A stretch of DNA of 64,000 nt from an uncultured Acidobacteriota bacterium (GTDB lineage: Bacteria > Acidobacteriota > Blastocatellia > RBC074), in contig CAVUOF010000032.1 in NCBI GenBank assembly GCA_963743045.1, positions 69,611 through 133,610 of the forward strand. Reading direction: 5' to 3'. Shown here one piece after another: positions 19,866 through 53,599 of this stretch. The position numbers and the translations under genes are program-made. A model generated the notes under the pieces. That model saw nothing but the letters and a program-made list of their open reading frames with translations. It made no database searches and was not told where the DNA came from. Numbering within the stretch: position 1 is the first letter of the stretch; each line of letters starts with the position of its first letter.

Positions 19866-19944
19866 CATGCGACCTCAGGGAACGAACGAAAGAATGACCT
19901 ATATGCTACAGCGCGGTCTTGAGGCCGCGTGGGAGGAGGAATCA

Positions 19945-24318: not shown

Positions 24319-27300
24319 TCAAAACACGAGTTTCAGTCCGAACTGCAGCTGTCTCGATGATCCTCTCGTTGTGGTGATCAAGCCCGCACTGCCAACCGGA
24401 CCCGTGCTGGAGAAGACGGTTCGCTGGCTTGGAATTGAAAAGTTCGGGTGGTTCAGGAAGTTGAAAACCTCGGTACGAAACTGCAGAGTAACGCCCTCCC
24501 GCAACCGAAACGACTTGTCTACTGCAAGGTCGAGCGCGATCAGCCCGGGACCGATCAAGGTGTTTCGTCCAAGGTTGCCATAGAAGCCGGGAGCAGGAAG
24601 AGCAAATGCAGCCGGGCTATAGTACCTGCTCGGGTCGCCCAGGATAGGGTTGATGCTCTGCCCGGGCACCAGGTCGGGTCGCTAGGTGATGTTCCAGCCT
24701 GGAAACGGGCTCGCGCCTGGTCGAAGCCGACTACCACTGAGAAGGGGTTGCCTGAAGCCAGGCTTGAAATAGCGTTGAGCTGCCAGCCTGCCGACAGCCA
24801 CTCAGGTCCCAGAAGTTTGGGCACTTGCGCGGTGACGTAACTCACAAAGTAGTGGCGCAGGTCATAATTCGAAAGCCCCCGCTCTTGATTCCGATTGTCG
24901 GGGTCCTGCGGGAGATCGTTGTCGCCACCCTGCGTGGTGACGATCGATGCATCGTCAATAGCCCTCGCGTACGTGTAGCTCGTGTGGAGCATGAGGTACC
25001 GGCCCGAACGGAACTCAAATGTCGTTTGGAGACCATTATAAGAAGAGATTCCGTCCGTGACCTTGTTGCGAATGCCGCTGAAGTTGGGGTTGCGAACGGT
25101 TGAATTGATCGGGAAGAACTTTCGGCCATCAGGAAGGATCGTCGGAATTGCCTGGTTCTGGTCGATCAGTCGAACCTCATGAACCCCATGCTGTCCTACA
25201 TAGGCTACGGTCAGAATCCCCCCTCTCAGGATCTCTCGCTGGATGCTCAAGTTGTAATGCAACGAGTATGGGTTGCCTGGTGTGTATGCCAGTGTGTCCA
25301 GGCGGCCGAGAACGAAGTTGGGGTTCGTCGCGACTGAAGCGGCGTTGGGGAAGCTGGGATTGCGGACGCTGCCCAGAGTATAGAAAGGCGGTTCGCGATT
25401 GGCTGCGTTTGCGTAAAAGTCAGTCCACAGTGGGTCAAAGAAGATGCCAAAGGCGCTTCGCACGCTGGTCTTTCCGTCACCGAACGGGTCCCAGGAGATT
25501 CCCACCCGGGGTGCGAAGTTGAGGTTCGAAGGATTCTTATACAACTGGCCTACCGTCGGCTTTGTATCGTGCAGAGTGTCACGCAGGTTCGCCTCCAGCC
25601 CGTCTCTCTCAGACGGCAGGCTCGTCCGCTCGTAGCGCAGCCCGAGATTGATTGTCAGGCGCCGCGAAAAATGGAAGTCGTCCTGAATGTACGCAGCGGT
25701 CATCGACTGGCTCCAGTGGCGCACCAGCTCAGATCCGGGTAGCGTCAGCTCCATAGCGAACGGAGTCGCTCTGAGGAAGCTCGCCAGCGAATTGAACTGA
25801 TAAAAGCCGTATGGAGACTGCGGGCGGCTGGTCGGCAAGTATATGTTGCGCTGGTCAAATCCGACTTTGAGCGAGTGACGCCCCACAATCCACGAGAGAT
25901 CGTCTCCCAACTGGAAGAGGTTGAGCTCGGAAAAGTTCGGTCCGAAACGACTCGGGCCCATCGAGAACAGTCCCGTGATACTGATCTGGCCGAAGGGCCG
26001 ACCGGGAAAGAATGACAGTGAGGGGTCGATTGGTCGCAGCTCATCAAAGGACTGGCTGCTGGTCGAACGATTGTAGTTAAGACGGACGTTGTTGAGCAGG
26101 CGCTCGTTAAACGTGTGAGTCATCTGGAGCGTCATGTATTGATTTCGAGATTTGGTGCTCGTCTTGATCAGCTGGAGATTGTCGGGCACCTGGACACCCG
26201 CGCTGTCATAAGTGTAGCGACCGAAGATCGAAGTCTTGTCTGAAAAGCGATGATCGACTCGTCCGGCAAAGAAGTCCTCATTGTCAGCATTGGAGCCGGA
26301 TGACAAATACTGCCCCGTGCCGTCATTAAAGTCGCGCCCATTGGGGAGAGGAACCAGAGCAAGATAGGGAGGAATCGATGGGTCAACCGAGATATGAGGG
26401 AGCCCGGGGATGTCTCCGTTTCTTGCTGCCGCGTTGGGTACAACCGCCTGATTCGTAATACCGAGGCGCTGCCTCAGACCCTCATAGCTGGCCAGGAAAA
26501 AGGTCTGGTCATGATGGATGGGGCCATCGATCAGACCCCGAACTGGTTGCGCGAAAAGTGCGGAATCTTTTGGGCTGCCGGATCGAAGAAGTTCTTGGCG
26601 TCGACTGCGCTGTTGCGGAGAAACTCGAACGCCGAGCCGTGCCACTGGTTCGTACCAGACCGGGTGACGGCGCTGATCACACCTCCGGCACTGCGCCCGT
26701 ATTCGGCGCTGTAGCCGTTGGTCAAAACGCGGAACTCCTGCAGTGTGTCGACACCCAGCAGGACTCCCGAAACGCTTCCCGGAGTATTGTTGTTCGCGTC
26801 GTTGATGTCAGCCTGGTCCAGCACAAAACTGATCTGATTGGGACGCCTTCCGCCCACCGATAGCTGCCCGCCACTGCCTGCAGAGTCAGAGGTCCTGCGC
26901 GAAGGCACGACACCCGGCTTCAAGACAGCCAGCTGTACAATATCGCGTCCGTTGAGCGGCAGTTCGCGGATGGAGTCCTTGTCCATGACGCTGGAGAGGG
27001 CAGCGCTGTCAGTTTCGACCCGGCTGACACCGCTCGTGACAACGGTCTCCGATGTTACCGTTCCGACTCTCATGGTGAACTCAAGTCTCGCCCGCTGGCC
27101 GACGGTCAGTTCGACGTTCTCCCTCGTCTCCGTTTGAAAGCCGTCATGAGAGACTGTCACATTGTAGACACCCGTAGGAAGCTGAGTGAATACATAGAAA
27201 CCGACGCTGTTGGTGTGCGTCTCGCGTGAAGCGCCAGTCAGCGGTTGCCGGACCGTAATTTGCGCGTTAACGATGATTGCTCCTGTTCCGTCGCTCACGG

Positions 27301-27394
27301 TCCCTGAGAGCTCTGCTGTGTTCTGTTGAGCCTTCACCATGACGCTCATACAGAATATCGCCGCAAGGCAGAGTGGTCGCTTGGTTCTTCTCAC
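24319..27394 (-). CDS. TonB-dependent receptor (carboxypeptidase-regulatory-like + plug + barrel); two apparent frameshifts (~26600, ~24650)
   Basis: N-terminal part in ORF 26531..27394 (signal, TGAIIVNAQITVRQ..GFYVFTQLPTGVYNVTVSHDGF, plug LPLNGRDIVQLA). Barrel in 24555..26645. C-terminus in 24319..24669, ending RQLQFGLKLVF*. Confidence 0.8.
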
Positions 27395-27530
27395 CGCTTA
27401 TCTCCCTTCGAAAAGGCAGATACATCGCCAATGCTGTTTGCAGGCTGCACCGCACCCGGGCCGGAGGATGGGGCACGACGTCCCCGCGCCAGGACAGCCT
27501 TAGGCCCATCATCCGTTCCCTCGGTCCACG

Positions 27531-28769
27531 CTACAAAGAGATGGTCAGGACGCTCAAATAGGAGTGCGGGATAGGTTGCACTTCCCATCGCATGCCCAGC
27601 CGCTGCAAGGCGGAAAGGGTGCCCGCCTGGTCGATCTGACGAAAGTAGATGTCGAATCTGCTCCAACCTGGTTGAGCCGAGTCCTGGCGAGCCTGAAACA
27701 CCAGACCCACCGTGCCATCAAGGGTCATAAGTCGGGGGTGGTTGGCATCCAGAAGGCTGGTGTCCGCTTCAATCTTTGGCGAGAAGTGGGCGCCGTTGTC
27801 ACTTGACGATGCGACATAGATACGGGACCGGTCACCCGATACCGTGCGCCAGGACGCAAAGATACGACCCTTCAGTGTCGCGAGCGACGGACCTGAGTGC
27901 GGGCATCCGTCTATCTGCCAGTTGTCCTCGGCAACACGTGACGGGGCGCCGAAGGTCGTAGCGCCGTCGGTCGAAGTAGCCACGAATATGTCACGAATGT
28001 CGTTGCCGAGAATCCCGCGCCAGGCGATATGCACCGTCCTGCCGTCGCTGAAGGCTATCTCCGGTCGACAACACGGGCAGACATTCAGCGCCACGCGGAT
28101 GCTCTTCTCAAATGACTGACCGCGATCGGTCGATCTGGCGAGATAGAGTGCGGAGGATACCTGCTTCCCCTGGCCCCGGTCACGCCCGTCCAGCCAGGCT
28201 ACGTAGACGGCCCCATCCGGGCCCACCGCCATCGTGTAAAAGGACTGCGACGCCGTGCTGGCTGGATCAACTGGAATCGGCTTGCTGAATGATTTTCCCC
28301 AGTCCATCGAGCGTGCGAGGCGGAGTGCCGAGCGCTCAGGTCCCGATTCCGCCGTCCAGAGCACATAAAATTCGTGCATGCTGCGCACGGCCATGAGTGG
28401 CATGTTTTCAGGGTGCGATGCCACCGATCCACCTTCGTTGATGCGGACTCCCTGGTCGAAGCTGTCGCCGCCATCGGAAGAGGTCTGCAGCCACAAATCC
28501 TCATCCCTGACGCGCAGGAGGAAGAGGTCTCCGGAAGCGCGGACCCCGAGTTGGGGGTAACCTCCCTTGCCGGTGACGCGCCCCTGGGACTCAAAGGTGA
28601 ATTGAGCTCCGCCGCTGTTCGCTCCGCCAACAAGAGCGCCAACAAAAGCGGATGATCCCGGAGTACAAGCCAGGACGATCGTGACCAGCAGAATCAAGGC
28701 AGATAGGACCGCTGAGTCGGAAGTCAGTTTTCTTGAGAGCAACAGTGATGATGCTGAGCATTTCTTCAT
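27531..28769 (-). CDS. BNR/sialidase-like beta-propeller protein, probable lipoprotein, with conserved CxCC...CP cysteines
   Basis: 412 aa. N-terminus ...LILLVTIVLAC|TPG is lipobox-like. Repeated SxDxGxxF/W motifs (SSDGGDSF, SMDWGKSF, STDRGQSF, STDGATTF, SSDNGAHF). Cys cluster NVCPCCRPE and IDGCPHSG. Confidence 0.6.
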   Translation of the reverse strand: MKKCSASSLLLSRKLTSDSAVLSALILLVTIVLACTPGSSAFVGALVGGANSGGAQFTFESQGRVTGKGGYPQLGVRASGDLFLLRVRDEDLWLQTSSDGGDSFDQGVRINEGGSVASHPENMPLMAVRSMHEFYVLWTAESGPERSALRLARSMDWGKSFSKPIPVDPASTASQSFYTMAVGPDGAVYVAWLDGRDRGQGKQVSSALYLARSTDRGQSFEKSIRVALNVCPCCRPEIAFSDGRTVHIAWRGILGNDIRDIFVATSTDGATTFGAPSRVAEDNWQIDGCPHSGPSLATLKGRIFASWRTVSGDRSRIYVASSSDNGAHFSPKIEADTSLLDANHPRLMTLDGTVGLVFQARQDSAQPGWSRFDIYFRQIDQAGTLSALQRLGMRWEVQPIPHSYLSVLTISL

Positions 28770-29016: not shown

Positions 29017-29463
29017 TCAACTTTTTTGATCAAGTCGATTCAGGCGCGGAGGCCCGCGTGGAGAAGAGGACTCCTGGATCGGAGTCTTGTGCAGGAGGAT
29101 AGGCTGTGATTGTGTCTCGTCCCTGTTGGATAAGTCGCGTTCGTCAAATGGTGAGCGATACCCATTGCGAGCCAGCGTCTGCACGGACGCGCCCGACAAC
29201 GCTCGCTCACCTGGGCATGGCCTGGAGATTTCCGGCGTGCCGACCTGAGTATTCCTGTCCTCAAGTTGTCCCTGGACGAATGCGTGGTGTGGCAGGCAGC
29301 AACAATGGCCCGCGGTGATGCAGCATGATACCGAGCAAACATCCGAGTCGTAGACGGCGAGGGAGAGAGGAGTTGCGAGCCAGCCTGACAGGAAGAGAGC
29401 GGCCGCACAAACGGCACGCCACGATGCTTTGTTCGGGAGGCTGGGTAGCACAGGTGACCACAT
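29017..29463 (-). CDS. Exported Cys/His-cluster protein, paralog 2 (C-x3-CC-x4-HCCC-x-P-HH)
   Basis: From the ATG at 29463: MWSPVLPSLPNKASWRAVCAAALFLSGWLATPLSLA|VYDSDVCSVSCCITAGHCCCLPHHAFVQG...SRPCPG...SSPRGPP.... It is a paralog of 36946..37347 with identical motif spacing. Confidence 0.55.
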   Translation of the reverse strand: MWSPVLPSLPNKASWRAVCAAALFLSGWLATPLSLAVYDSDVCSVSCCITAGHCCCLPHHAFVQGQLEDRNTQVGTPEISRPCPGERALSGASVQTLARNGYRSPFDERDLSNRDETQSQPILLHKTPIQESSSPRGPPRLNRLDQKS

Positions 29464-29689: not shown

Positions 29690-29974
29690 CGCCGCTGTGT
29701 CTCTTGCGATGTTGGCTATTTTCGTCAGCCGCTGATAAGCGCAAGTCAACCACTCAAGCGCTATAACAAGCAATTGGTTAAATACTAGTAGTCACCTATT
29801 GCCGCAGCACTTAGATTGCCCACGCTAATCGGCACCTTAATATCGGGGTAGATCGAATCGAGAGCCGAGAGGTATGGGCACCGCACTGCTTGTCTTGATT
29901 GCTGACTATGAACGGCCCGCGCGGTCGTTTCTGGCAGCGATGCTGCGCAGCTTCGAAGATGTTGAGCTGATTGC
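29690..29974. repeat. Duplicated segment, copy B (pairs with 18900-19183)
   Basis: Same conserved blocks as copy A. Similarity ends inside the regulator's receiver domain. Confidence 0.75.
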
Positions 29975-30005
29975 AAGCTTGACGCGGCAAGTGGGTTCAA
30001 TATGA
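29874..30005 (+). pseudogene. Truncated LytTR response-regulator remnant (43 codons)
   Basis: MGTALLVLIADYERPARSFLAAMLRSFEDVELIASLTRQVGSI* against the intact MSTALRVLIADDERPARSFLAALLRRFEDVVLIGEA.... The acidic-pocket DD is changed to DY, and the ORF stops after the homology break. Confidence 0.7.
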
Positions 30006-30138
30006 CAAGACGGGCGCGTATTTTTAGTGGGCCGGCCGCGGTGACGGATGACAGAAAGGCAGGTAGCGCACTTCGAGATCATCCCCTCGAGGGGCTACTC
30101 GCGTGGAAACGCGGTATAAGTTTCTATGCAGCTTCGAT

Positions 30139-31426
30139 CTAAGCCTGAAAACCCTTACAGAGACGACAGGATGGAGTAGCACCACGCGCTACTGGAGCGA
30201 GCGCCCGTTGAGCAGGCGTCGGATGAAATGAGCGGCTCAGAAAGACCGAGACCACACCCGGATCATTCGGTCCCGATACCTGTGAAACATTGGTCACGGC
30301 CAGGTCTGGAACGCCATCACGATCGAAGTCCCCCGCACCTATCGTGTAGGCGCCACCCCGCGTCATGAGATTGATCCCATCCTTGAATGTTCCGTCGCCC
30401 TTGCCGAGGAGGACCGTGATTCCCTTTGCCGTGCTCTGACCAATCGAGTCGGTGCTCAGGTTGGCGACTGCGATGTCGAGATTGCCATCAAGATCGAAGT
30501 CCGCCACTGCCAGCCACAAGGGGTCTCTGCCTACGGCAGGTTGTGCGGTACGAGCAAAAGCGCCGGCGCCATTTCCAAGGAATACGCTGACGGTCGCGTT
30601 GACCGAGTCCGCGCTGATCAGATCAAGATTGCCGTCGTGATTGATGTCTACGGAGAGCAGGTAATGGGGCCCGGCACCACTTGTCAGGGTAGTTCCCTCT
30701 CGAAACGTCCCGTCGCCATTTCCTAACTTGATGGCAATTGCACTGTCGTCGAGTACGGCAATCGCGAGGTCTGCTTTGCCGTCGCCATTGAAGTCTCCGA
30801 TTGCCAGCCGCATGGGGACGGTGGCCCGCGTCGAAGCGCGTTCCGTTAGCAGCCGAAGCGTCGAAGAACGTGCCATCGCCGCGGCCGATGAAGATCGAGA
30901 CTAAATTGCGCTCGTCTTCTGCGACCGCCAGGTCCATCTTACCGTCGTTATTCAGATCACCAACGGCGACGTGATGCGGCTGGAGTGAATTGAAATCGTG
31001 TCCGGCGAAGAATGTGCCATCGCCGCGCCCGAGGAGAATGGAGCAGGTTCCAACACCATAGTTGGTGACTACGAGATCGAGGTTTCCGTCACCGTTGAAA
31101 TCGCCTGCAGCAATAGAACTTGGGTAGTCGTCTGCCTGCTGCTTGCCAATGGGGTAAGTGCGGGCCCTCGAGAAGACGCCGTTGCCGCCACCAAGCCGGA
31201 CTACGAGCGAGGGAACGTATGTACTGCCGCTCGGCTGGTAAAAGTTGGTCTGCACGAGATCAGGTATCTTGTCGTGATCGAGATCGACGACAAGCAATCC
31301 GTAGGGCGTATAGACCCGGTCATTGAGCTGAGTACGCAGATAGTCGATGCCTTGTTCTGAATGTATCGCGGGATTCAGCGCGACCGCCAGACCCACGAGG
31401 GTGAGGAGTATGTAAAGCTTTCTCAC
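30139..31426 (-). CDS. FG-GAP/VCBS repeat exported protein, copy B (frameshifts near 30850 and 30215)
   Basis: Nearly identical to copy A (the first 26 residues are identical). Split between ORFs 30623..31426 and 30139..30876. A 1-nt difference near the 3' end extends the reading frame past the stop used in copy A. Confidence 0.7.
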
Positions 31427-31569
31427 GGTTTATCGCTCCAGGCAGTCACTGTTCAAGTCAGCGGACCGGTAGGGAGGTTCCCGCGAGAGGCGACCACCGG
31501 TTGTTGGCCTTGCGCAGACGGTGCCAGAACATGCGGCGGCAAGAGGACCTGTTCGGGACGAAGGCCGCC
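30188..31569. repeat. Segmental duplication, copy B (pairs with 11838-13218)
   Basis: See copy A. Confidence 0.8.
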
Positions 31570-31771
31570 GTCACTATTCTCTTTCCCGCTGAGCATGGGA
31601 CCGCCTCGTGCAGGAAGTCGGCTCAAAGATTGGTTCGCTGCCGGGCCCCGAATGGTATCCGAGTAATGCGCAAGTATTTTGAGAAGGGCAAAAGCCCTTC
31701 GTCTGTGATGCAGGTGGATCGCCGCCTCGATATTCATTCCTGGCCCGGCTGTCGGATCGTGGCCACTTGCG

Positions 31772-33998
31772 CTAGTAGTGGAACCGGTAGGTGACAGCTG
31801 CATAAATCTGTCTCGGGTCGGCATAGTGAGTGCCATTGAAGGTCTCACTGTTGTCCAACAGGAACCGCCGGTTGGCTACATTCAGCATGTGAACGGCAAT
31901 TGAGAGTTTTTCGCCCATAGCCTTTCCCAACGCCAGGTCGAAGGTCGTGTGCCCCGGAAGATGTTGGGGCGCATTGTCTCCATCGACGAAGCCCGACCCA
32001 TAGTAGACGTTGGTAGCTGCAAATGCGCTCCAGGGGAGACGGATATCCCCTCCCACGTTGAGCGTGTTGCGCTGATCATGGTCGAGGAGGAAGTAGTCGC
32101 TCGGCGGAGAGAAGTCGGTCAAGCCACCAGTCACGGCTCCCTGTCCTTCCAGTTTCAACCAGGCATAGGCCGCGTGCACTTGAGCTCGCTGAAACAGCCT
32201 TGGCGAATTGACAGTCACCTCCCACCCTCTGGCCCTGCCTCGCTCAATGGTCACCGGAAAGAAGATGTTCGAGTCGCCGAGCGCATTGTGATCGAAGAGA
32301 TTCTTCGTGCCGGTATGAAAGTAGTCTCCGTCGAGCGTCCAGCCACGAACGGGGAGTGTCAATCCGACCTGATACTCTTCGTTGCGTTCGCCGTGCAGCG
32401 GCAGAAAGGCGAAGCCCTCGTCGAGCGCGAAATCGATCACCGGGCCTTGAACGGTAGACAACGGCGGAGCCTGATAATAACGGCCATAGAATCCTCTCAG
32501 CACCAGACCTGCGCGAGGCAGACGAACCGCGACGCCCGCGCGAGGACTTCCAATGGTCTCGCTCACTCCTCCGTCGAAATGGGTCAATCGCGCGCCCAGA
32601 GTGAGAGTCAGCCAGCCGGTCGGCTTCATCTGATCCTCGAGAAAGAAGGCCTCCAGGTTCCCTGACGGCTTCTCCCTTTGGAGCAGGCTTCCTCCAGTCC
32701 CGTCGTTCGCCTGGAGACCGAAAGAGGCGGTGTCGCTCTGATAGAACGCGTAAACGCCAGCTTTTGCGCTGTGACGATTTGCTCAGCCAGCTGAGCGTCA
32801 CCTGGCCTCCGGCATAGTTCGAAAGGCGTTTCTCCTGCGGGATTATCGGGTTGTCATCGGGACCGCCAAGGAATGACGCATTGTTGAAATGCAGGAATGG
32901 AGAGACAGTCAGCAGCAGGCGCGGTGTGAGAGTTCGGACCCAGGAGAGGTTGATATACCCGTCACTCTCAATCTCGACGTCTCTGATACCGGCCGCTTGT
33001 GTCTCTGGATCGTTGGGCACCTGGTAGAAGTCGCGACGTGCTGAGGCCACCAGACGCAGTTGATCGACGGGAGTCGCGTTGAATGCCAACGAAACGAATG
33101 CCCCGATGCCGTTTCCCAAATCATGGATGACATCCGGTCCCGGGGTCGCCAATCCATAGTCGCTCCGGTTGCCGTTGAGGCTCACAAAATAGGCGAACCG
33201 CTGAGTGTGACTGGCAAAACTGACCTGGTCATTGGTCTGGTTGAAGCTGCCGTAGCTCAGCCTCAGCTCACCTTCCTGATTGCGCTCAAATCCCGACCTC
33301 GGCACGACGTTGAAGACGGCATAAGTGCGGTCGCCGTAGGCTGCCGAATAACTTCCCCGCTGCACTTCGAGGTAATCAATATCTTTCGGATCCACTTGTG
33401 GCGCCACATTGCTGGCGATATTGGTGTTCGGCACCGGAACACCGTCGATCAGCCAGCTGACCTGGTGCCCGCCGCGAACATGCAGGAGATCGTGTGTGAC
33501 ATAGGCTCCCGGAACGTAGTTGGTAATCATCGCCAGGCTGTTGCTGCGATCCGCGCCGGGCGTCCGCGCAATCCTCTCTCGTCCGATAAGAGTCGTAGGC
33601 GTTGGTGAATCCGAACCAATGAGCTCGGGCGCCTCCACGACATCGACTCCTTGCGTAACCGGAGCAATATGCATTGCAAATTCAAGGATTGGGGCATTGT
33701 CCGTGAGAACCGTCACCGGCTGCTCAATCCTGGCGAACCCGCCCGCCTCAACCGTCAGAACATACTCGCCGACGGGAACCGAACGAAAAATGAACTCGCC
33801 GTGATCATCCGTCACAACGGAAAGAACCAGTTGCGAGGTGCGCGATTGGAGGGTCACTTGAGCACCCTTTATTGCCTGCTGCTGAGGATCACGCACCAGA
33901 CCACGCACGTCGCCGAGTACAGCGGCATTCAGGTTTGAAATCATCGCGAGCAGAATGACGGCTGGCAGGATGACAAATAGCAACACCTTTCGACGCAT
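31772..33998 (-). CDS. TonB-dependent receptor (carboxypeptidase-regulatory-like N-domain); at least one frameshift (~32650-32760)
   Basis: Signal MRRKVLLFVILPAVILLAMISNLNA. GLVRDPQQQAIKGAQVTLQS..GEFIFRSVPVGEYVLTVEAGGF, then plug RTPGADRSNSLAMITNYVPG..VRGGHQVSWLIDGVP. The C-terminal ORF 31772..32629 ends YAAVTYRFHY*. Confidence 0.75.
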
Positions 33999-34028
33999 GA
34001 TACCTCCCTTCGTCGAAGCGGCTTGACC

Positions 34029-36816
34029 TCAGAATGTGAGTCGCAATCCGAATTGAATCTGCCTGGGATCTGCCGCCCCTGTGGGCGTCCCGAACGCCGG
34101 CGGCGGAATTGTCCCTGTTCCAAAGGTTGCGTTCGGGAGCTGCAGGTTGGCGCGATTGAGCAGGTTGAAGCCCTCGGCCAGCACATCGAGGCCGAATCTC
34201 TCGGTGAACCTGAAATGGCGGCTGAGTCTCATATCGAAAGAAGCAAAATCAAACCCGACGCCTGTGTTTCGGCCAACTCCGACAGGCCGGTCATTGACCG
34301 CCGTATCATTGTTACGATCGTTGCCAGTTACGATGTTGAAGGGCAAGGACGAGCCATAACTGAAGATGTAGCTCAACTGGAATCCTGACACGGCTCGCCG
34401 CCAGAATGGCTCACCGGCAGCCGCCGTTGGGCTCGACAGCGAACCGCTGATTACAAGTCGATGCCGCTGATCGTTATCCGACAGGCCCCGGTCATCGCGT
34501 AGATTGGAGTTATCCTGCGGGCCGGAAAAGAAGGCGCTTCCCGTATTATCGATCGCCTTCGAGAACGTATAGGAGAGTCTTAAGCCGGCCCAGCTCTTGA
34601 ACCTGCGATTGAGTGAGACAGTCAACCCGTTGTAGTAGGCGTCGCCTGAGCCTTCGTAGCGGCTGATGTTGGCGAAGAGAGGATCGGGACGGCCAAGATT
34701 GGCGATGCCTTTCTGCGTTGCCTCCGCCGCCGAGACGGTTGGAACATTGACGTTGCGCGAAAGAATGACGTGCAGACTCCGCACGTAGACGTACCCGACC
34801 GAGAGCGACGTCGACGAGGCAATCTCGCGCTCCACCTGGAGGCTCGCCCGCAGCGCGTTGGAATTCTCTATGTCAGGATCGATGCGCGTAATGCTGGCCA
34901 GCAACCCGGTCGGAAACGCCGGCAAAACGCTCGGGAAGATGGGTGTACCGGGCTGTCCGAACGGGATCACCGCGACCAGGTATTTCGTGCCGTCACGCTG
35001 CAGAGCATTCGATGTGGCGCGCAGGGGAATGCGATCGTAATAGGTACCATAGCTCGCACGAATGACCGTCTTGTGGTCGCCCGGCGACCAGGCGATGCCG
35101 AGACGGGGAGATATATTGTTGGTGTCTGTTTTGATCGGATCCGGCAGAAACTGCAGGTCGTAACGCAGCCCCAGATTGATCGTGAAATTCTTCAGCCGCC
35201 ATTCGTCCTGAACAAAGAACCCGACGTTTGGATTCGACTGAAACTGGCCTGGTGCTCCGAACGCCTGCTGGAAAGTTACGTACTGGCCGCGAATGAAATT
35301 GGCAAGGTTGGAGAATGTATAGACGCCCTGGAGCGCCCCGGGAAACTCGATGTCGACGCGGTTGAGCAGAAAATCGAGCCCGAATTTCAACGAGTGGGCC
35401 CCTCGACGAAGTGTCATGCTATCGACCGCCTGAATCGAGTCGATATTGCGCTCAGTGGGAGACGACGTCGCTGTGCCCATATTGGCCACACCCGATATCG
35501 AGATGGCCGGGCCGATGAGATCGTTCGGCGGAGCTCCCAGACGGCTGCGCGTGTACTGGAACCGAGCCTCGTTCATCAGTCGCGGAGAGAGAGTGGCGAC
35601 CTCGCTCAGGACTATCGATTGATCGCGACTGTCGAGTGCCGTTCCTCGGCTCACAGCATTGATTCCGCCAACGTTGCGCGCATTGAGGCTCGAAATGTCG
35701 TAGTAGCTGTAACGAGCCGAAAGCAGGTTTGCCGGGTTTATCCGATGGTCCACTCGAACAAAGACGTTGGATGTGTTGTAACCGGCCGGCGCGAGTCCGG
35801 TCTCAACTCTCGATGCGGAGTATTTGACCTGGTTGAGAATGTCATTGATGGCCAGCACGCTGGCCGGCGTTATCGTCAGGACAACTGCGTTATGAAGCCG
35901 CGTCTGCTCGAAGTTGGCAAAGATGAACGTCCGATCCCTGACTATCGGGCCTCCCCCCGTGGCTCCGTATTGCGCTTGCGTCAACGGGTCCTTCGTCCTG
36001 GCCAGAGGATTTCGCGCGTCAAAACGCTGGTTGCGCAGGAAGCCGTACAACCGGCCATGCCAGTCATTGGTTCCTGACTGCGTGACTGACATTGATGATT
36101 CCCGCAGATGCTCGCCCGTACTCGGCGATACCACCGGAAGTGATGACCTGAAACTCACGAATCACGTCCTGGCTGAAGAAGGTCGCCGGAAGATCGGCAG
36201 CATCGTCGTTGGAGGAGAGCCCATCCAGCAGAAATCCGTTGTTGATATTCCTCTGGCCGGTAACCGAGATCGCCGTGCCTGGGACTGCGGAAGTCTCGGC
36301 AAAGCGCTGGTTACTTACAGGATTTGCTCTCGTCACTCCCGGCGTCAGCGCCGCAAGGTCGAGATAATTGCGCCCGTTCAGCGGAAGCGAATCGACCTCC
36401 TTCGGGAGTATGGTCTCGGATACCTGGGTACGCGCGGTCTCTATGATCGGCGCATCCGAATGAACCTCGATTTGTTCACTGACGACGACACCCAGCTTAA
36501 TAGGAACGTCGAGCGTCTGGCCGACAGTGAGAGACAATGCGAGAACAAAGGTGGCAAATCCATCTCGTTCAGCTTTGAGTTGATAGCGTCCGACAGGCAG
36601 ATATGTAAAGCGATATCTGCCCTGGGCATCACTCGTCGTTTGCCATGTTTCGTTCTGATCAACCCTCGTCACGGTGACCGTAGCGCGGGCCACCATGGCG
36701 CCCTGCATGTCTTCGATAGTGCCGCTGAGCGTAGCCGAGGTAACGCTCTGTTGTGCTCTGGCCGTCGCAGCAGTCAAAAGGAGAAGGACTGCGAGCATGG
36801 CCAACCTGCGTCTCAT
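34029..36816 (-). CDS. TonB-dependent receptor (carboxypeptidase-regulatory-like N-domain); one frameshift (~36070-36150)
   Basis: N-terminal ORF 36064..36816 (MRRRLAMLAVLLLLTAATARAQ, GTIEDMQGAMVARATVTVT..GRYRFTYLPVGRYQLKAERDGF, LPLNGRNYLDLAAL). A 709-aa barrel ORF follows, ending ADPRQIQFGLRLTF*. Confidence 0.8.
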
Positions 36817-36945
36817 ACTCCTCCGAACTTCCTCTTTGCGTCCCCTGGGACCGCAGAGAAGTGGAGATCAGCTGAATGAGCGCTGCATGAACTGTCGCTG
36901 CACGAGCGGATTCAACTCGAGCAACCTGACAGTGTCAGCGCAAGA

Positions 36946-37347
36946 TTAGCTTTGACGGAGAGTATGGGCCGGAGGTGCTCGCGGCGATGCGATTTCGAAG
37001 CGGTCTGCCTCGTGAACTCGCCTTACCTGAGCGTGCGGGATCGCAGGCGGAGCCATCGCTTCGAATTGGTGCGAATGGTCGCCAGCGGCAGTACCAGTGA
37101 AGTTTGAGGACGAAACACCTGCAGTCGAGCAACTGCCGGGGCATGGGCGATTGAGCTCCGGATTGCGAATCTCGTCTCTGCCCGATGGGATTTCGCCCTT
37201 GACGTAAGCATGATGTGGAGAGCAACAGCAATGGCCGACGGCCACGCAGCACTCCATGGTACAGACATCAGCCTCGTAGGTTGCGAAGGCGAGAGGCGCA
37301 GACAGCCAGCCAAGCAGCAGTGCAAGTAGTGCGCTTGCAGCGCGCAA
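36946..37347 (-). CDS. Exported Cys/His-cluster protein, paralog 1 (C-x3-CC-x4-HCCC-x-P-HH), first gene of the receptor operon
   Basis: A TTG start at 37347 gives (M)RAASALLALLLGWLSAPLAFA|TYEADVCTMECCVAVGHCCCSPHHAYVKG...NRPCPG...ASPRAPP.... It lies 129 bp upstream of the receptor gene on the same strand. Confidence 0.55.
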   Translation of the reverse strand: MRAASALLALLLGWLSAPLAFATYEADVCTMECCVAVGHCCCSPHHAYVKGEIPSGRDEIRNPELNRPCPGSCSTAGVSSSNFTGTAAGDHSHQFEAMAPPAIPHAQVRRVHEADRFEIASPRAPPAHTLRQS

Positions 37348-37681
37348 ATTGAGCTTTGCTCTGGCGAAGCATTATCATGAACTTAAGTAGAGGAACTGGA
37401 CTTTGCTAGTTGCACCTTACTCCGGCGGATTGGGTCAGTCAAGCGCAATCTATTGCACCTTGTTTCCCGCCGCCGCCAAGAGAACAGCCGCTGCCGCGGC
37501 TCCAGCAATGCCACAATCCATTGACAAGTCAGCTCGCATCGGAGCATTCCGGAAGTACAACTGAACTCACGGCAGAAGATACTCAGCGTCGCCTGTCCCA
37601 TCGCCATTTAGGTTTCTCTCGCGAACGATACGCGACGTAAAGGAATGATTGACGAACACGCCCCGGAGCTGACGCCCAACG

Positions 37682-37975
37682 ATGGATGAGGATAAGGGCG
37701 AGTCTCCAACCACACCTTCGGTCCGACAGACCGTTGGCCATTACCGGATTCTGTCCACGCTCGGAAAAGGTGGGATGGGTGAGGTCTATCTCGGCGAGGA
37801 CAAGCGGCTCGGCCGCAAGGTCGCTATCAAACTGCTGCCCGCGAGATTCACGACTGACACCGGGCGCTTGAGACGCTTCGCCCAGGAATCGCGGGCCGCC
37901 TCAGCACTCAATCATCCGAACATCATACGATTCACGAGATCGGCGAGGCTGCAACGGAGCATGGGCAACCCCAAC
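37682..37975 (+). pseudogene. N-terminal fragment of a Ser/Thr protein kinase (frameshifted, 3'-truncated)
   Basis: [36 protein letters not shown]...ALNHPNII shows the Gly-loop and VAIK lysine. After a 1-nt shift it reads [12 protein letters not shown], then similarity is lost. Confidence 0.6.
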
Positions 37976-38425
37976 AGTTGCGCCGAAGTTAACCCGGGCT
38001 TTGCCGACGCGTGTGGTGTACCACGTGGCGACCGGCGACACTCCGACTTCCAGTTCGAGCGCCGTCGTCGCTCAATCGCGCGCCTTGAAGCGGTAATTCT
38101 CATCCGTTTGACCGTGTGAATGGAGATCAATGAAGCCCGGGCGCGACAACTACAGCCCGCGGGCATCAATGACTGTCTGCCCGCGGAGAGGCGAAGCGGA
38201 AATGGCCTCTATTCGCCCGCCACGGATGCCGACATTGCGGATGGCATCGAGGCTGGATCCCGGATCATCGTGCGGCCAATTGGCGAGAACGATATGGAAC
38301 ACTGGACCGGTCTGCGCAACCGTGATCCTGAGCGTCAAAGCCGTGGCTGAGCATAGAAGCAGCATCGCTCCGATCAGAAGAGCCTTTCTATTGAGCTTGA
38401 TGAGCTCTGAAGAGACACGGGTCAT
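37950..38425 (-). pseudogene. N-terminal fragment of an amidohydrolase (D-aminoacylase-like), frameshifted, 3'-truncated
   Basis: MTRVSSELIKLNRKALLIGAMLLLCS...IRNVGIRGGRIEAISASPLRGQTVIDARGL, then with frame shifts [43 protein letters not shown]. It runs into the kinase fragment head-on. Confidence 0.5.
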
Positions 38426-38510: not shown

Positions 38511-40065
38511 TCATCTACGCTTCGCGGGTTTGCCGATGGCAATCTGAAAGATCGCGCTCTTGCCTGAAGCGTGCGGCGAGAAGAATTGGACCACGTAATC
38601 ATCGTAAAAAGTCAGGCCAGTGGCGCCGAAACCCTGACTGTAGGCCGCAAGATATATCTTCCCGCCGATGATCCCCATTCCAACTGAACCGCGCGATAGC
38701 CCCGATTGCCAAATTGATGCAAGATGGCGTTCAAATCGGCCAGAAAGAATATGGTCGCGCTGGCATCGGCGGGCAGGTCTTGTTCAAGGCCCAGGTAACC
38801 CGCCTCGGCACGAAAGTCTCCTTCCTTGAGCAGCTCCAGCGCCAATAGGTCGCTGTGCAGCACATACGCGCCAGGCCGCAAATCTTCAACCGCGTGAACG
38901 ATGAGATAGAGATGGTTGAGATGCATCCGACCGGCGCGAGGAAATCGGTCGGAATGGCTTGCATTGAGTGATAGAGCAAGTTTGAGAGTTGAGCGAAAGA
39001 AATCGGCTCGCGTGCAAACCGCCGCGTCGAGCCGCGCTTGAGGATCACCCGCCCGAGCGGCGCGCCCAAGCTTCGGCGCCGGTCAATGGTTTGAGAGCGA
39101 TCAACTCTGCGGTCGGCTCTGCAGATTGTTGAACCGGAGCGCCGTCGCGCCAGGCTCGCACTTCTTCCAAATCAAGGAGCGATGAGGCAGCGTGCATCAA
39201 GCGCATCGCCGGGTAATCAATCTCCTTAGGGGAGTAAGATGTACTTGCAAGTTTAGGGGTGCGATCCGCGCTGGCGCGGCCGGAGGCGGCGCGGCGCCCA
39301 GCCAAGCGGCACGATCGAAAACCCGACTTCGCGCTCGCTGTCGAGATCTAACAACCTATTCACTTCATGATCTACAAATCCCATGACAACGCGCGCCGGC
39401 ACGTTGAGCGCCGCGGCCACCGCCAGCAAATTGCCAAGGAGCGTGCCGTTGTCCCAACCGAAATGACGATAGGTGCGTGCCTGATATTTCCATGCATTGC
39501 GCCAGTAGATCGCCGAACAGACGATCGTCACGGGCGCGCTTGAAACAGACGGCTCTAACGCGGTCGCCTGAGCGAGCGCGCTGCGGTAATCGCCCTGACG
39601 CAATCGCCGGAGGGCGAAATCACCGGGATTGAAGTGGTAGATGCCTGCTTCGAGATCGGGCAGATCGCCGCAGACCAGATACAGCTCGGTCTCGTAGAGG
39701 GCTCCCGTGCACGATGCCGCGCGGAAAAGGATCTCGCCAACCGGATACGTCTTTCGCCTGGTGATTCCAGCGGAATAAAACAGAATTCGCGCAAGGTCCT
39801 TCAGATCGGGTATTACTTCTTGTTGCGGAGCGACAACCGTGGTGGAGATCGCATCGAGAGCGGCGATATCCGATAAGGGCTCCGATAAAGGCTGCAACGA
39901 GGGCATGACGCTGGGGAGCGGGATCGGATCGAGGGTGGAATAGACCTTGAACGGCATCGGCCGGTTCGGCCAATCGAGGAAGTGAGCGTTTTCGTGCACG
40001 CTTCGATACGAATGCTTTGTGCCATCGTGATATGCCCAAGCAGCCTCGAGGTCCCGATTAACCAT
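38511..40065 (-). CDS. Two-domain SagB/ThcOx-type nitroreductase-family protein; at least 3 frameshifts
   Basis: N-terminal half intact (39253..40065: AWAYHDGTKHSY...FRAASCTGALYETELYLV..WRNAWKYQARTYRHFGWDNG). The second half is spread over ORFs 39045.., 38731.. and 38612... A further frame ends GIIGGKIYLAAYSQGFGATGLTFYDDYVVQFFSP...GKPAKRR*. Confidence 0.65.
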
Positions 40066-40293: not shown

Positions 40294-40476
40294 GCAGCGT
40301 CGATAAGTCGCCGAGACACCTCTGGGCTTATGTTCGAGTGCTCAGATGCACCGGAATCGGTGCCGCAGACTGTCCAGTCTGCGGCGGCCTTCGCTACTGC
40401 ACCATCCAAAGGATATCGGGGCCTAATCTCGAGTGCTGCCGCAGGCTGGACAGCCTGCGGCACGATTGCGGTCTGC
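40294..40476 (+). repeat. ~180-bp two-hairpin REP-like unit (single copy)
   Basis: GCAGCGTCGATAAGTCG...TTATGTTCGAGTGCTCAG...GCCGCAGACTGtccCAGTCTGCGGC...GCCGCAGGCTGgacCAGCCTGCGGCACGATTGCGGTCTGC. Same unit and same orientation as at 41571-41945. Confidence 0.75.
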
Positions 40477-41107
40477 GGCAGCCCCTACAGGCGCCCCTGC
40501 AAAACAGACCCGGTTTTTTTGCCAGCAGTTAGGCTCCATCGCAAGCTCCATTTCAGAAACCGCAGAAATAGGAGTCCCTGACCAACGCCGAAGCACAAGC
40601 TGATCAGGACGTGGGAAACGCCGGTGTGTAAGCCGGACAATCAACCCGGCCAAATAGCCTCGCAACTCCTCAATCGAAACATCGCCCGGCAGATCGACGT
40701 CGTCACCCAGTTCGATCTGGCTGAGTACCCATCCCAATTGCGCAGGCGTCAGCCCCTTGTCCTTGGTCACCGCTGCGCTGAGCGCACTCTCTAACTGGTA
40801 GCCAGCCAACTCCAATGCACGTACGTCTACGAGGTCACGTATTTCCGAGCGCGATAAGAGCGCGCAGAGTTTGTTAGCCATAATCTCCTGCGGCGGGTCG
40901 ACACGAATGCCATTGATTAGCCGCTTGTCCGGCGCCACTTGCATGACGTATTCACGGGCCAGGTCGATGGTCACCGTCATGTGCTCCTCCATGTCCCAGA
41001 TGAAAGCCGACCAGCGCAGCACCACCAGTGAGAAAGAAGCGGTCGTCGCGCCGAAAGAAAGCGCGCAGGAAATCCTGTTGCAAGGCGCTTAGTTGGTGGT
41101 TAGCCAA
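40423..41107 (-). pseudogene. Degraded AbiEii/AbiGii-type nucleotidyltransferase toxin remnant
   Basis: N-terminal frame: LSALQQDFLRAFFRRDDRFFLTGGAALVGFHLGH.... C-terminal frame: MTVTIDLAREYVMQVAPDKRLINGIRVDPPQEIMANKLCALLSRSEIRDLVDVRAL...KDKGLTPAQLGWVL. The central ~50-70 aa expected for the family appear to be missing, and the ORF tail runs into the repeat. Confidence 0.5.
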
Positions 41108-42124: not shown

Positions 42125-43330
42125 CTAGTAGATAATCGTGAAGCCGTTGGTGTCGTCGCTGACCACCGCCGCGAGACCAAATACCGGAACTCCAGGAGCT
42201 GAACCGCGCTCACCTACGGGCTTGCCGAGCTCATCAAAGACCTGCCAGGCGAGCGAGCCTCCTTTACGGAATGCAGTTCCTTCGGTCCACACGAGGATTG
42301 TCTGGCCATGACTGTCTAAAGCCAGCACCGGATGTTTGCGCTCGCCGTTGCCACCGGCGGGTGCGATAGGGCCCGTCAAAAACTTGCCCTTCGCGTCGAG
42401 CTCTGCATAGTAGACCTGGCCCTTTGTCTCCCAGGCTGCGAGCAGGCCCTTAGTTCCCTGCGCCATAGAAGTTGTGCTCATCGGGCACGTGTCGAGGTCC
42501 CATCTATCCAGCCGCTGACCGCTGAACTTCTGACCATGATCGGTTGAGCTGAGGAGAAACATGTCCCGGTGAGTATTCTCTGTAGCAGCACGATAGATGA
42601 AACGCACCTCGCCATCCTTCTCGACGAAGCCACGCATCCCGCAGCAACCGCATGCTCCGGTATCGTCATCCAGTGCCGGTACCTCGCGCTCAAACGTCTT
42701 GCCCTCATCATTCGAGCGAGCCAGCCAGACGCGCCGATGCAGCTCGCCCTCGGATGAGCCACTTCCATGCCACGCAACGAAGACGCGACCCTGGCTGTCC
42801 GCCGCTACGGTGCCGCCGCCGTCGAGCCCTGCCGCAAACTGCATGACGTTGCGTTCGGCTTCGAAGGCAGTGCGGCCGTCATTGAGCCGCGCGTAGAGCA
42901 TCGGTGCTGCATCCTTCGGTCCCTTCGGAGTGGCCGTGTTTGACCCCATCCATGCAACATGCACCCGGCCCGAAGGGCTTATGGCAATTTGAGGACCACG
43001 GATTGTGCCTGATGCGATCGCGCTCCCAGCCTGGCTGTTGACGCGCAGCGCAGGTGAAAACTCACGCTCTCCCGGCGCGAGTCGCACATAGGAGATGTTG
43101 CTCGCCGCAGGCTCACCGCTCAAATAGATGACATGCACCAACCCGTGCGAGTCCTTGATCGCCTGCGGCTGAATTCCGCCATTTGGTACCCGGAGGAGGT
43201 TGACCCTCGGAGCAGGCACCTTCCCGGCCGTCTGTGAGTCTCGGGTCGCGTGTACCGACCAAAGCGAGACCGCTACCACCGTCATCAGCAGAACTGCAAT
43301 CGTCAATCGCCTTAACATAATCAATCTCAC
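42125..43330 (-). CDS. BNR/sialidase-like beta-propeller protein with CxCC...CP cysteines (paralog of 27531..28769)
   Basis: 401 aa with an N-terminal TM/signal. Contains RSNDEGKTFE, SSTDHGQKF, GACGCCGMRG and LDTCPMST. The cysteines sit at the same relative positions as in the 27.5-kb paralog. Confidence 0.6.
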   Translation of the reverse strand: MRLIMLRRLTIAVLLMTVVAVSLWSVHATRDSQTAGKVPAPRVNLLRVPNGGIQPQAIKDSHGLVHVIYLSGEPAASNISYVRLAPGEREFSPALRVNSQAGSAIASGTIRGPQIAISPSGRVHVAWMGSNTATPKGPKDAAPMLYARLNDGRTAFEAERNVMQFAAGLDGGGTVAADSQGRVFVAWHGSGSSEGELHRRVWLARSNDEGKTFEREVPALDDDTGACGCCGMRGFVEKDGEVRFIYRAATENTHRDMFLLSSTDHGQKFSGQRLDRWDLDTCPMSTTSMAQGTKGLLAAWETKGQVYYAELDAKGKFLTGPIAPAGGNGERKHPVLALDSHGQTILVWTEGTAFRKGGSLAWQVFDELGKPVGERGSAPGVPVFGLAAVVSDDTNGFTIIY

Positions 43331-44911
43331 TGCATATCACCCGGCCGGAATCGCAGAAAGATGCGAAACGATACCGGGCTCTGACCGTAGACCGGGTCCA
43401 GCTCCCTGGGCTTGTGATAGAGAGTCATATCGCTGCCTATCCCAAAACGTATCGCACGCGTCGAGACTACATCACGAACGCCGCCGAAGGTGAACTCGCC
43501 GACTCGAAATGCCCGGTTGAGAATCGCCGGACACGGATCGTTGCTCCCCGGAGGCGGGGGCGGAAGATGGTGCTTCTCGACCGGAAGACCCTTCACGAAG
43601 AAAGGTATCGGAGGCGGGGGAGGCGGTTTGGAGCCGGGTGGTACGAGCTGGCATCCCGCCACACCGGGCCGGCCCCATATGTTCTCGGCGAGGAGCGCCG
43701 TCTTATCCACCAGCTCGAGCCTCGTATAGAGATGGTTCTTTTCAATGAAGTTGAGCGTCGATTCAAAGAGATACGAGTTGGTATTGCCGAAGCTGTCGTG
43801 ATCTCTGCCCCAGACGAGCGTGCTCGCCCAGCTTCCACGCCGGAAAGGGCCGGTTGTAAGCAATCGACGCGGTCTTGCGCTCAAAGTTCAAATTGTAGAG
43901 CGTCTCGGGATGCACGAGGTGACCGAATGAAAATTGGATCGCCCAATTCGGCGTGGGTGTAAACCAGGCTCGAAAGCTGTATGAGTCGAGTTTGCCAAGA
44001 TCGATGCCGAGCCGATCCTCGTCCGGCTCTGCTCCATGAAACAGTGAGCCTTCGAATTTGAAGAGTCCTGCCGTGACTCCGGCCGTGACCACGCCGTGCG
44101 TAATGTGAGTAGCATCCTGCCAGTGATGGCTGATCGGAGCCGCCGGATTCTCGCTCGCCGAAGCGCGATGCATGAATGCCGTCGGACCGAGAGCAGGCTC
44201 GCCCACGGGACCACCGTAGAACTGCACTGAGACACGCTCTGAGAGCGGGATGGTGTACATGGCAGCCAGTTCCATGAACACGTCGTGAGGATGCTGAGCA
44301 TCGATGATTCCCTGCTTGCGGTAAGTCTCACCCGTCTGAAAGAGCAGCGGGAAGCCGCCGTGCGGCGCTGTCAGAGGCTCAGCCGAAAGCATCGCGCGGA
44401 GCATAAGCTGGCCCGGCCCCACCTTGTGCTCGGCCATCCCCATGAACCAGTTCTCCGACTCGGCCTTCCCCACGCCGCGCGGTCCGCCCTGATTCGAATA
44501 TCCGACCTTGAGATCCATATGGAGCATGATGCTCCAGCCACCGGGCATGAAATGCCACATCGGCACGTTGGTCGAAGCGGGCTGAAGGGACGTACCGGAC
44601 CCGATTGCCTGCATTGCGCGAAACGGGCCGCCCGTTACCGTAGCCAGCATCATCATCTGATGGCCGCCCATCGTCATGTGACCTGAATGATCGGCACTGC
44701 CATCGGAGTGATCCATCCCTTCGTGATCGACTGGCTCACTCTTGTCGGCCTTGTCCTTGTCATCCTTGTCTGAGCCGTCACCCTTCTGCTCTTTCGTCGG
44801 CTTCTGCTGACCAGGATCGCCAGCCTGAGACTCCTGGGCAAGCACGGGTAATGCCGCAAAGAGCAGCAACGCGAGGATCGGAGCTATGAGGATTTTGATA
44901 GTCGCTTTCAC
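43327..44911 (-). CDS. Outer-membrane beta-barrel protein with His/Met-rich N-terminal region; one frameshift near 43870
   Basis: Signal MKATIKILIAPILALLLFAALPVLAQ. Metal-ligand-rich HEGMDHSDGSADHSGHMTMGGHQMMM. Conserved-looking GFPLLFQTGETYRKQGIIDAQHPHDVFMELA. It continues in ORF 43327..43884, ending FRIFLRFRPGDMQ*. Confidence 0.6.
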
Positions 44912-53588: not shown

Positions 53589-53599
53589 GGGGAGGCTGC

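Follow-up and report, generated by a model that had tools for sequence, protein, structure and literature searches.

Metal-sensing arrest peptides encoded by upstream open reading frames (uORFs), such as CruR and CutF, were described only in 2022 to 2025 and almost only from Proteobacteria (PMC9426467, PMC9973294). We analyzed a stretch of 64,000 nucleotides (nt) from an uncultured Acidobacteriota bacterium of the Blastocatellia (contig CAVUOF010000032.1, positions 69,611 to 133,610; the whole stretch is called the window below) and compared two small Cys-rich open reading frames (ORFs) in it, ORF A and ORF B, with these systems. Sequence comparisons suggest that ORF A and ORF B are regulatory uORFs, namely arrest peptides of the RAPP type with an exported Cys-rich sensor, and not structural proteins. 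We put the probability of this reading at about 0.7. Statements about the described systems follow the consulted parts of the cited reports.

Experiments have established RAPP/RGPP as an arrest motif refractory to elongation factor P (EF-P) (PMC12992588, PMC9426467). It is counter-selected and among the most depleted tetrapeptides of bacterial proteomes, and it is enriched at the C-termini of small secreted uORFs, including a "TonB-related" class that the RAPP-uORF survey lists with signal peptides across Gram-negative phyla (PMC12992588). When RAPP peptides stall, the P-site tRNA is known to carry R-A-P while Pro-tRNA occupies the A site. In CruR of Bordetella, the downstream TonB-dependent transporter is no longer expressed once RA or PP is mutated, and the rut site of cruR has been mapped to a C>G bubble (PMC9426467). 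The spacing from CXXC to RAPP in DUF2946 proteins is 45 ± 2 residues, and five added residues break copper regulation (PMC9426467). CruR itself was reported to be poorly structured and undetectable in vivo (PMC9426467).

The original prediction had singled out both ORFs, and their coordinates and translations agree with it. They and their parts are as follows.

36946..37347, minus strand: ORF A, putative Cys-rich RAPP leader peptide (uORF) of 133 residues with a TTG start as assembled, based on its translation, the ORF B paralog and family membership
37282..37347, minus strand: predicted Sec-type signal peptide of ORF A, residues 1-22 (…APLAFA/TYE), based on a hydrophobicity criterion, the family consensus and the AlphaFold2 helix
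37210..37263, minus strand: Cys6 cluster of ORF A, C29-x3-CC-x4-HCCC-SPHH, residues 29-46, based on the alignment of 135 members
37129..37143, minus strand: CPGSC (CxxxC) motif of ORF A, 49 residues before RAPP, with C69, P70 and C73 near-invariant
36970..36981, minus strand: R-A-P-P codons of ORF A, predicted ribosome arrest site, 7 codons before the stop
37348..37378, minus strand: probable true 5' end of ORF A, out of frame here; the ATG at 37378 gives MIMLRQSKAQ
29017..29463, minus strand: ORF B, paralogous putative leader peptide of 148 residues, with CPGER and thus without the second Cys of CPxxC
29284-29337, minus strand: Cys6 cluster of ORF B
29047..29058, minus strand: R-G-P-P codons of ORF B, 9 codons before the stop

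ORF A and ORF B are paralogs with 36% identity over 132 residues (BLASTP, E of 7e-31). Both have a hydrophobic N-terminus that ends in an A-x-A-like site, in agreement with the Sec-type signals claimed for them, and both carry six Cys and three His within 18 residues in the arrangement C-x3-CC-x4-HCCC-x-P-HH (C29-H46 in ORF A, C43-H60 in ORF B). The C-terminal SPR[A/G]PP is likewise found in the two ORFs. The RPCPG block named in the original prediction is also present in both, but it is really part of a CxxxC motif, CPGSC in ORF A, whose second Cys is missing in ORF B. A database protein (P0011) is identical to a longer form of ORF B that starts at 29550. In the AlphaFold2 model of ORF A, which was built from an alignment of 85 sequences, the structure prediction that had been proposed gave a confident helix for the signal (residues 2-22) but no fold for the mature part, which was modeled as coil. 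The mean predicted local distance difference test score (pLDDT) was 67.6 and the predicted template modeling score (pTM) was 0.33.

The 5' end of ORF A looks frame-disrupted. The peptide MIMLRQSKAQ, read from the ATG at 37378 in another frame, agrees with the N-terminus of P0001, a homolog with 73% identity (MKILRQSKRVQLRAE), and a single extra T in CAATTTGCG (37353-37345) would account for the shift. About 140 nt upstream of ORF A lies a terminator-like hairpin (AGCCGCGGCAGCGGCT then GTTCTCTT; 37486-37501, minus strand), which is consistent with ORF A opening its own transcription unit. At ORF B, a sigma-70-like promoter match (TTTACA-18-GATAAT; 29462-29491, minus strand) overlaps the ATG at 29463. 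If this match is real, the start would be an in-frame GTG four codons on, and the N-terminus would still be typical of the family.

We searched for relatives of ORF A and ORF B with several methods. A word-indexed search returned 8 homologs, and an exhaustive profile search returned 204 representative proteins (clusters at 50% identity) at E≤1e-3, 159 of them at E≤1e-10. All matches of a second profile search were named "hypothetical protein" and had no Pfam domain, and those with a named source were from Blastocatellia. Pfam and NCBIfam scans gave no match for ORF A or ORF B, in line with the earlier remark that the cluster could not be placed in a named family, and a search of the PDB sequences with the family profile gave a chance match only (E of 0.74). 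A scan of one genome per species yielded 18 matches, often several per genome. Of these, 17 were real loci, 14 of them from metagenome-assembled genomes (MAGs) of Blastocatellia/Acidobacteriota and three from MAGs labeled "Heliomicrobium". The remaining match (L020, from a Deltaproteobacterium) was rejected as a false positive, since it was a hydrophobic match within a membrane protein of 350 residues. The three loci labeled "uncultured Heliomicrobium sp.", a Firmicute (L009, L017 and L019), adjoin TonB-dependent receptors of the CarboxypepD_reg type, which are typical of Acidobacteriota, and the label is probably wrong. By these searches, ORF A and ORF B belong to an unannotated family found nearly exclusively in Blastocatellia/Acidobacteriota MAGs.

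The alignment of 135 full-length members showed three near-invariant blocks, C-x-M-x-CC-x3-G-x-CCC, C-P-x-x-C and P-R-[A/G/S]-P-P. The Cys, Met and Arg-Pro-Pro positions were conserved in at least 93% of members, and the Gly and the two flanking Pro in 87-89%. C29, C33, C34, C40, C41 and C42 of ORF A were each kept in at least 93%, and the second Cys of the CPxxC motif was present in 129 of 135, so that eight Cys are near-invariant across the family. Homologs with conserved Cys, which the original prediction had asked about, thus exist in number. An export signal was found in 126 of 128 members as a hydrophobic 12-mer (Kyte-Doolittle value of at least 1.8) after K/R and 11-16 residues before the first Cys, with the consensus [AS]-L-A ahead of the mature part; this 12-mer rule and the consensus were used for scoring.

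Of the 156 retrieved proteins, 133 had the R-[AGS]-P-P motif at a distance of 0-16 residues from the C-terminus, and the remainder were mostly fragments. Two full-length members carried RPP or RPPP in its place. Arg and both Pro were identical in all 133 motif-bearing members, and the second position was Ala in 111, Gly in 20 and Ser in 4 of the 135 aligned members. At 23 distinct loci, synonymous variation was observed at all four codons of the motif (CGA/CGC/CGG/CGT, GCN, CCN and CCN), which indicates that selection acts on the peptide. The spacer between CPxxC and RAPP was 49 residues long in 91 and 48 residues long in 23 of 127 members (114 of 127 together), whereas its columns were mostly less than 35% conserved. 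The Cys6 cluster was 79-80 residues from RAPP in most members. A spacer that is kept in length and not in sequence is what the geometry of a nascent chain requires, and DUF2946 is defined by just this property.

These features were compared with those of the described systems. Like CruR (Bp2923 of Bordetella pertussis; Roy et al. 2022, PMC9426467), ORF A is a small putative uORF at the head of a TonB-dependent transporter operon, with an export signal, a Cys motif at a fixed distance from RAPP (45 ± 2 residues in CruR, 48-49 here), a long intergenic region, a C>G bubble at the 3' end of the uORF and a mature part that is predicted to be unstructured. However, CruR has a CXXC motif, as opposed to the CxxxC of the present family and its additional near-invariant C-x-M-x-CC-x3-G-x-CCC directly after the signal peptide (PMC9426467). 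Furthermore, CruR belongs to Proteobacteria and this family to Acidobacteriota. The receptor here is of the CarboxypepD_reg/OMP_b-brl_4 type and has a sialidase-like beta-propeller as its partner in place of PepSY_TM, and CruR works through Rho termination without need of its signal peptide, whereas a helix that sequesters the Shine-Dalgarno (SD) sequence is predicted here (PMC9426467).

The DUF2946-like CutF from Rhodobacter capsulatus (PMC9973294, bioRxiv 10.1101/2025.02.05.636593) shares with the family a Sec signal, cleavable in CutF, a CxxxC motif, exposed to the periplasm in CutF, and a C-terminal proline stall motif. In CutF, the stalled ribosome opens an mRNA helix under which the next gene's SD would otherwise be hidden, a feature that is only predicted here, and an interplay of metal binding and disulfide formation has been proposed, as it is for the present family. 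However, CutF stalls on PPP in an EF-P-sensitive manner, as opposed to RAPP in this family, and as described it has no Cys6 cluster. It controls a multicopper oxidase for detoxification that is induced by copper, whereas the gene downstream here encodes an outer-membrane importer. In addition, the stem-loop of CutF is local to the intergenic region, whereas the predicted anti-SD here lies inside the uORF, at and after the stall codons and 100-300 nt upstream of the SD.

The layout of RAPP-type arrest peptides, in which a small (<300 residues) secreted or membrane protein carries R-A/G-P-P close to its C-terminus and its gene precedes a co-directional one, is found in this family, as in ApdA/ApdP and the wider RAPP-uORF class (Fujiwara et al. 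2025, PMC12992588). ApdA and ApdP monitor Sec/YidC activity and are described without a Cys sensor, unlike the family here, and the consulted parts of that survey make no mention of an eight-Cys family, of its fixed spacing or of the RNA pairing (PMC12992588). SecM-secA is similar in having an exported nascent chain with a C-terminal arrest motif (RAGP in SecM), and the stalled ribosome of SecM disrupts an SD-sequestering helix, as is predicted here for ORF A and most relatives, but SecM senses translocation activity and not a ligand, and it has no cysteines and no sequence relation to this family. Taken point by point, the family appears to work like CruR/CutF and the RAPP-uORF class on every testable architectural point.

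Folding of the minus strand between 36800 and 37000 predicted a long-range helix between the end of ORF A and the start of the receptor gene downstream. Its two arms are as follows.

36956..36978, minus strand: predicted 5' arm (anti-SD, ...CACCUCCGGCCCAUACUCUCCG), present in the minimum free energy and the centroid fold
36814..36825, minus strand: predicted 3' arm, Shine-Dalgarno and AUG of receptor gene 1 (CGGAGGAGUAUG)

In this fold the RAPP and tail codons, GCACCUCCGGCCCAUACUCUCCG (36978-36956), pair with CGGAGGAGUAUG and its flanks (36825-36814). The duplex energy of ORF A with its own ribosome-binding site (RBS) was -17.4 kcal/mol, the best among 17 RBS regions (its own and those of 16 other loci), and the pairing probability in extended context was 0.53. 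We then applied partition-function folding to 17 non-redundant loci, each with flanks of 120 nt upstream and 60 nt downstream. The downstream SD/AUG paired with the stall-site window at a probability of at least 0.4 in 12 of the 17 loci, ORF A included, and the mean pairing probability was 0.38 for the stall-site window versus 0.007 for other upstream windows. Duplexes were stronger within a locus (-14.4 kcal/mol) than across loci (-12.8 kcal/mol), with a permutation p of 0.006 that is optimistic because of the phylogenetic relatedness of the loci. Relatives show this long-range pairing again despite differing sequences; for example, CAUCUUUUCUC pairs with GAGAAAAGAUG in locus L010 and AUUCUCCUCU with AGAGGAGAAU in locus L004. 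When a ribosome is arrested with its P and A sites occupied by Pro, most of the 5' arm would lie beneath it, and a stall should therefore expose the receptor RBS. Stall-dependent RBS unmasking has precedents in CutF-cutO and SecM-secA (PMC9973294, bioRxiv 10.1101/2025.02.05.636593).

No intrinsic terminator was found between uORF and receptor in the window. A subgroup of the family has a conserved long hairpin of ~25 bp (TGACTGATGTCGAGGCGCGCC...GGCGCTTTTCGGCGTTGGTCG) in the intergenic region after the uORF (L001:1440-1520, L003, L004:2100-2190, L005, L007:6390-6480, L008 and L012; alignment columns 80-141). It offers almost no covariation, and it is not present at the two copies in the window. 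It was considered as an intrinsic terminator and rejected, since its T-run lies inside the stem.

In the mechanism that we propose, the signal peptide would take the nascent chain co-translationally to SecYEG, and the ribosome would stall at R-[A/G]-P-P, its P-site tRNA bearing ...R-A-P and its A site filled by Pro-tRNA. By then, about 125 residues would have been made. The Cys6 cluster, which lies ~80 residues from the motif, would already be periplasmic, and CPxxC, ~52 residues from the peptidyl-transferase center, would be just emerging from the ribosome/translocon, as judged by the dimensions of tunnel and translocon. The exported eight-Cys (Cys8) module would act as the sensor of a thiophilic metal or of the thiol-disulfide state before the chain is released from the ribosome. 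Metal binding or disulfides at the eight Cys, or their prevention, would set the pulling force and through it the lifetime of the stall, and this lifetime would set receptor expression via RBS unmasking and/or protection from Rho. Receptor translation would accompany stalling in ORF A and most relatives, and release would re-sequester the RBS. The analysis shows the conservation of the family, the fixed spacing and the synteny, together with a predicted RNA pairing whose complementarity is specific to the locus; stalling, the ligand and the sign of regulation are the parts of this proposal that we infer. Opposite signs are known, as copper releases CruR and holds CutF (PMC9426467, bioRxiv 10.1101/2025.02.05.636593). 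Metals other than copper are plausible because DUF2946 genes also head a Cd/Zn efflux operon in Caulobacter.

The genes downstream of ORF A and ORF B were assigned by Pfam and are listed below.

34029..36816, minus strand: TonB-dependent receptor 1 (CarboxypepD_reg and OMP_b-brl_4), frame-disrupted near 36087; in tblastn with the intact ortholog of locus L004, identity is 70% across the switch
31772..33998, minus strand: TonB-dependent receptor 2 (CarboxypepD_reg, Plug and barrel), 30 nt after receptor 1, frame-disrupted near 32776-32844
27418..28769, minus strand: BNR/sialidase-like beta-propeller (Pfam BNR_2), probable lipoprotein with an …IVLAC lipobox, first gene after ORF B, frame-disrupted near 27600
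24322..27394, minus strand: TonB-dependent receptor 3, with two frame disruptions at ~26537 and ~24654-24759

Receptor 1, whose gene has a strong SD (GGAGGAG) and encodes a signal peptide, begins 129 nt after ORF A and is followed by receptor 2 and then by FG-GAP proteins. After ORF B, a gap of 247 nt precedes the beta-propeller and receptor 3. Of the two operons said to continue into a TonB-dependent receptor, that of ORF A does so directly, whereas ORF B leads first into the beta-propeller gene (27531-28769). The expected synteny with receptors in other genomes held, as ~20 of 23 distinct family genes at 18 related loci were directly upstream of a receptor or of a beta-propeller and a receptor, and tandem uORF-receptor-uORF-receptor modules occur among these loci. 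The gap between the uORF and the next gene was 100-300 nt in relatives, and long intergenic gaps have also been noted for cruR and cutF homologs (PMC9426467, PMC9973294). The beta-propeller, which stands ahead of the receptor in some uORF-receptor modules and behind it in others, is their third conserved component and may be a surface-exposed substrate-binding partner of the receptor. Its homologs are named only "sialidase family protein", and no sequence relative was found for it in the PDB.

Other ORFs were noted around this cluster. The stretch between receptor 2 and ORF B encodes one or more FG-GAP repeat proteins, again broken up into overlapping ORFs, two in number (30139-31426, minus strand), and a second BNR_2-like ORF is found at 42125-43330 (minus strand). 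The flanking ORFs include a truncated N-terminal fragment of a Ser/Thr protein kinase (37682-38119, plus strand), an AbiEii-like toxin fragment (40423-41025, minus strand), a nitroreductase-family protein (39253-40065, minus strand) and an ORF with a CarboxypepD_reg domain (19867-20610, plus strand). The surroundings of the cluster showed no metal-homeostasis genes.

In this assembly, each of the three receptor genes, and the beta-propeller gene as well, is broken into ORFs that overlap, and the 13-kilobase cluster (24322-37378) has at least six frame switches. In tblastn searches with intact orthologs, identity was 70-80% on both sides of each switch, and the orthologs in other MAGs are intact single ORFs of 950-1090 residues. 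Further overlapping ORF pairs that look split, as judged from their own frames, are located for example at 3518-5139, 9640-11299, 11838-13074, 43327-44911 and 51867-53923. Because such pairs occur across the window, the frame switches suggest uncorrected assembly indels of the long-read type and not pseudogenes or decay specific to this locus. The receptor at locus L005, on a MAG contig of 2.9 Mb, is likewise split by frame switches.

Several observations weigh against the interpretation of ORF A and ORF B as arrest-peptide uORFs. The PF11162 (DUF2946) profile matched neither of them at E≤0.01, and ORF A had no match even at E≤10; the original prediction had likewise placed the HCCC core outside DUF2946. 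Of the Cys/His spacing that homologs were expected to keep, the Cys part is retained but the His part is not, as H39, H45 and H46 are found in 55%, 13% and 40% of the 135 members. The operon of ORF B opens with a beta-propeller gene and not with a receptor, and the genes downstream of both uORFs are frame-disrupted in this assembly. With respect to the RNA, pairing of stall site and RBS was not predicted for ORF B (probability of about 0) and was also missing in 5 of 17 loci, the complementarity is partly a by-product of Pro codons (CCUCC) opposite SDs of the GGAGG type, and the optimism of the permutation test counts here as well. The receptors carried no metal-linked signature, with weak generic TonB matches only in NCBIfam, and the conserved sialidase-like partner hints at a non-metal substrate. 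The copy in ORF B, having neither the pairing nor the second Cys of CPxxC, must differ, for example by acting through Rho, or be degenerate.

Although neither ORF reached the PF11162 threshold, PF11162 was the only Pfam family matched by more than one member, with sub-threshold matches in 5 of 85 members (best E of 0.0023). As in DUF2946 proteins, RAPP is located near the stop, a signal peptide is present, and the gene is the first one ahead of a TonB-dependent transporter with a long gap. However, a CXXC at 45 ± 2 residues from RAPP is not found; in its place C-P-x-x-C occurs at 48-49 residues. We set the family apart from DUF2946 because PF11162 is unmatched and the sensor module differs, and from the sequences it would be either a very divergent DUF2946 clade or a convergent family.

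The output of the switch could also be transcriptional. The sensor would then be the same, the C-rich, G-poor stretch at the stall site could be a Rho loading (rut) site that the stalled ribosome masks, as in CruR, release would lead to Rho termination, and the SD pairing would be incidental. A C>G bubble with a C/G ratio of 2.0-2.6 is indeed centered exactly on the RAPP codons of both ORFs, so a Rho-based output is a live alternative, especially for ORF B. The long intergenic regions, 129 and 247 nt here and 100-300 nt in relatives, fit it as well, and ORF B and the 5 of 17 loci without SD pairing need some other output. However, the C-richness stems partly from Ser/Pro codons, and in 12 of 17 loci the SD pairing is both strong and specific. 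Both outputs could operate together, and we regard a purely Rho-dependent one as possible, though well short of probable.

The original prediction left two readings side by side, and the arrest motif, the fixed spacing and the synteny favor the sensor leader over a periplasmic metal-handling protein. As stable Cys-rich proteins, ORF A and ORF B would be metallochaperones or metallothionein-like buffers that partner the receptor in metal uptake or detoxification, and RAPP would be incidental or serve tuning. The export signal, the eight near-invariant Cys and the operonic association with outer-membrane transporters are compatible with such a role, and many proteins bind Cu(I), Zn and Cd through clusters rich in thiolates. 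However, RAPP/RGPP is kept in all full-length members but two although it is highly avoided in proteomes, the 49-residue spacer, being conserved in length only, fits a fixed spacer and not a folded domain, AlphaFold2 predicted no fold, and the PDB and Pfam scans gave no relative. Furthermore, CruR and CutF, the prototypes of DUF2946, cannot be detected in vivo, where they are quickly degraded (PMC9426467, PMC9973294). We consider a stable metal-binding protein unlikely. A still weaker candidate is a ribosomally synthesized and post-translationally modified peptide (RiPP), the precursor of a Cys-derived metallophore of the bufferin or methanobactin kind that the adjacent receptor would re-import. 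A signal peptide and a Cys-rich core beside a TonB-dependent receptor do resemble metallophore loci. However, Pfam and BLAST of the neighbors in the window and the 18 loci revealed no conserved modifying enzyme (MNIO/DUF692, radical SAM, cyclodehydratase or similar) and no recognizable metal-homeostasis gene. The pair of a DUF692 enzyme and its partner protein that adjoins bufferins and other MNIO-modified RiPPs was absent from the same set. The neighbors were receptors, BNR beta-propellers and FG-GAP proteins only, and such precursors have no use for a conserved C-terminal RAPP or a fixed spacer. The RiPP reading was rejected for want of a modifying enzyme nearby, and we hold it to be very improbable.

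Within the arrest-peptide reading, a more far-reaching version can be formulated. The Cys8 module might be a new type of nascent-chain sensor at the mouth of the Sec translocon, reading the periplasmic thiol-disulfide state or the cooperative assembly of a polynuclear cluster of a thiophilic metal (Cu(I), Zn, Cd or other), and not a copper sensor of the CruR type, with the paralogs as differently tuned translational switches for non-metal uptake. This version is speculative, and we lean toward doubting it. In such a sensor, the spacer of 48-49 residues would time the emergence of CPxxC relative to the exported Cys6 cluster, and the several paralogs per genome could each gate their own receptor or beta-propeller module.

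The class of mechanism has already been published, and what is of interest here is the unannotated Acidobacterial family, the eight-Cys sensor, the sharp spacing and the predicted long-range anti-SD helix. The Cys sensor differs from that of CruR/CutF and is much richer, and the spacing of 48-49 residues bears on the site of ligand sensing along the path from ribosome to translocon. The several paralogs per genome, each with its own receptor, form a natural series for specificity determinants, and the long-range anti-SD/SD helix, whose 5' arm is predicted to lie under the stalled ribosome, provides a testable handle. If the reading is correct, ~200 clusters of "hypothetical proteins" would gain a proposed function, and the receptor/beta-propeller modules would be conditionally expressed uptake systems. 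The principle of the metal-sensing arrest peptide would then extend to the Acidobacteriota, which are abundant in soil and genetically hard to study.

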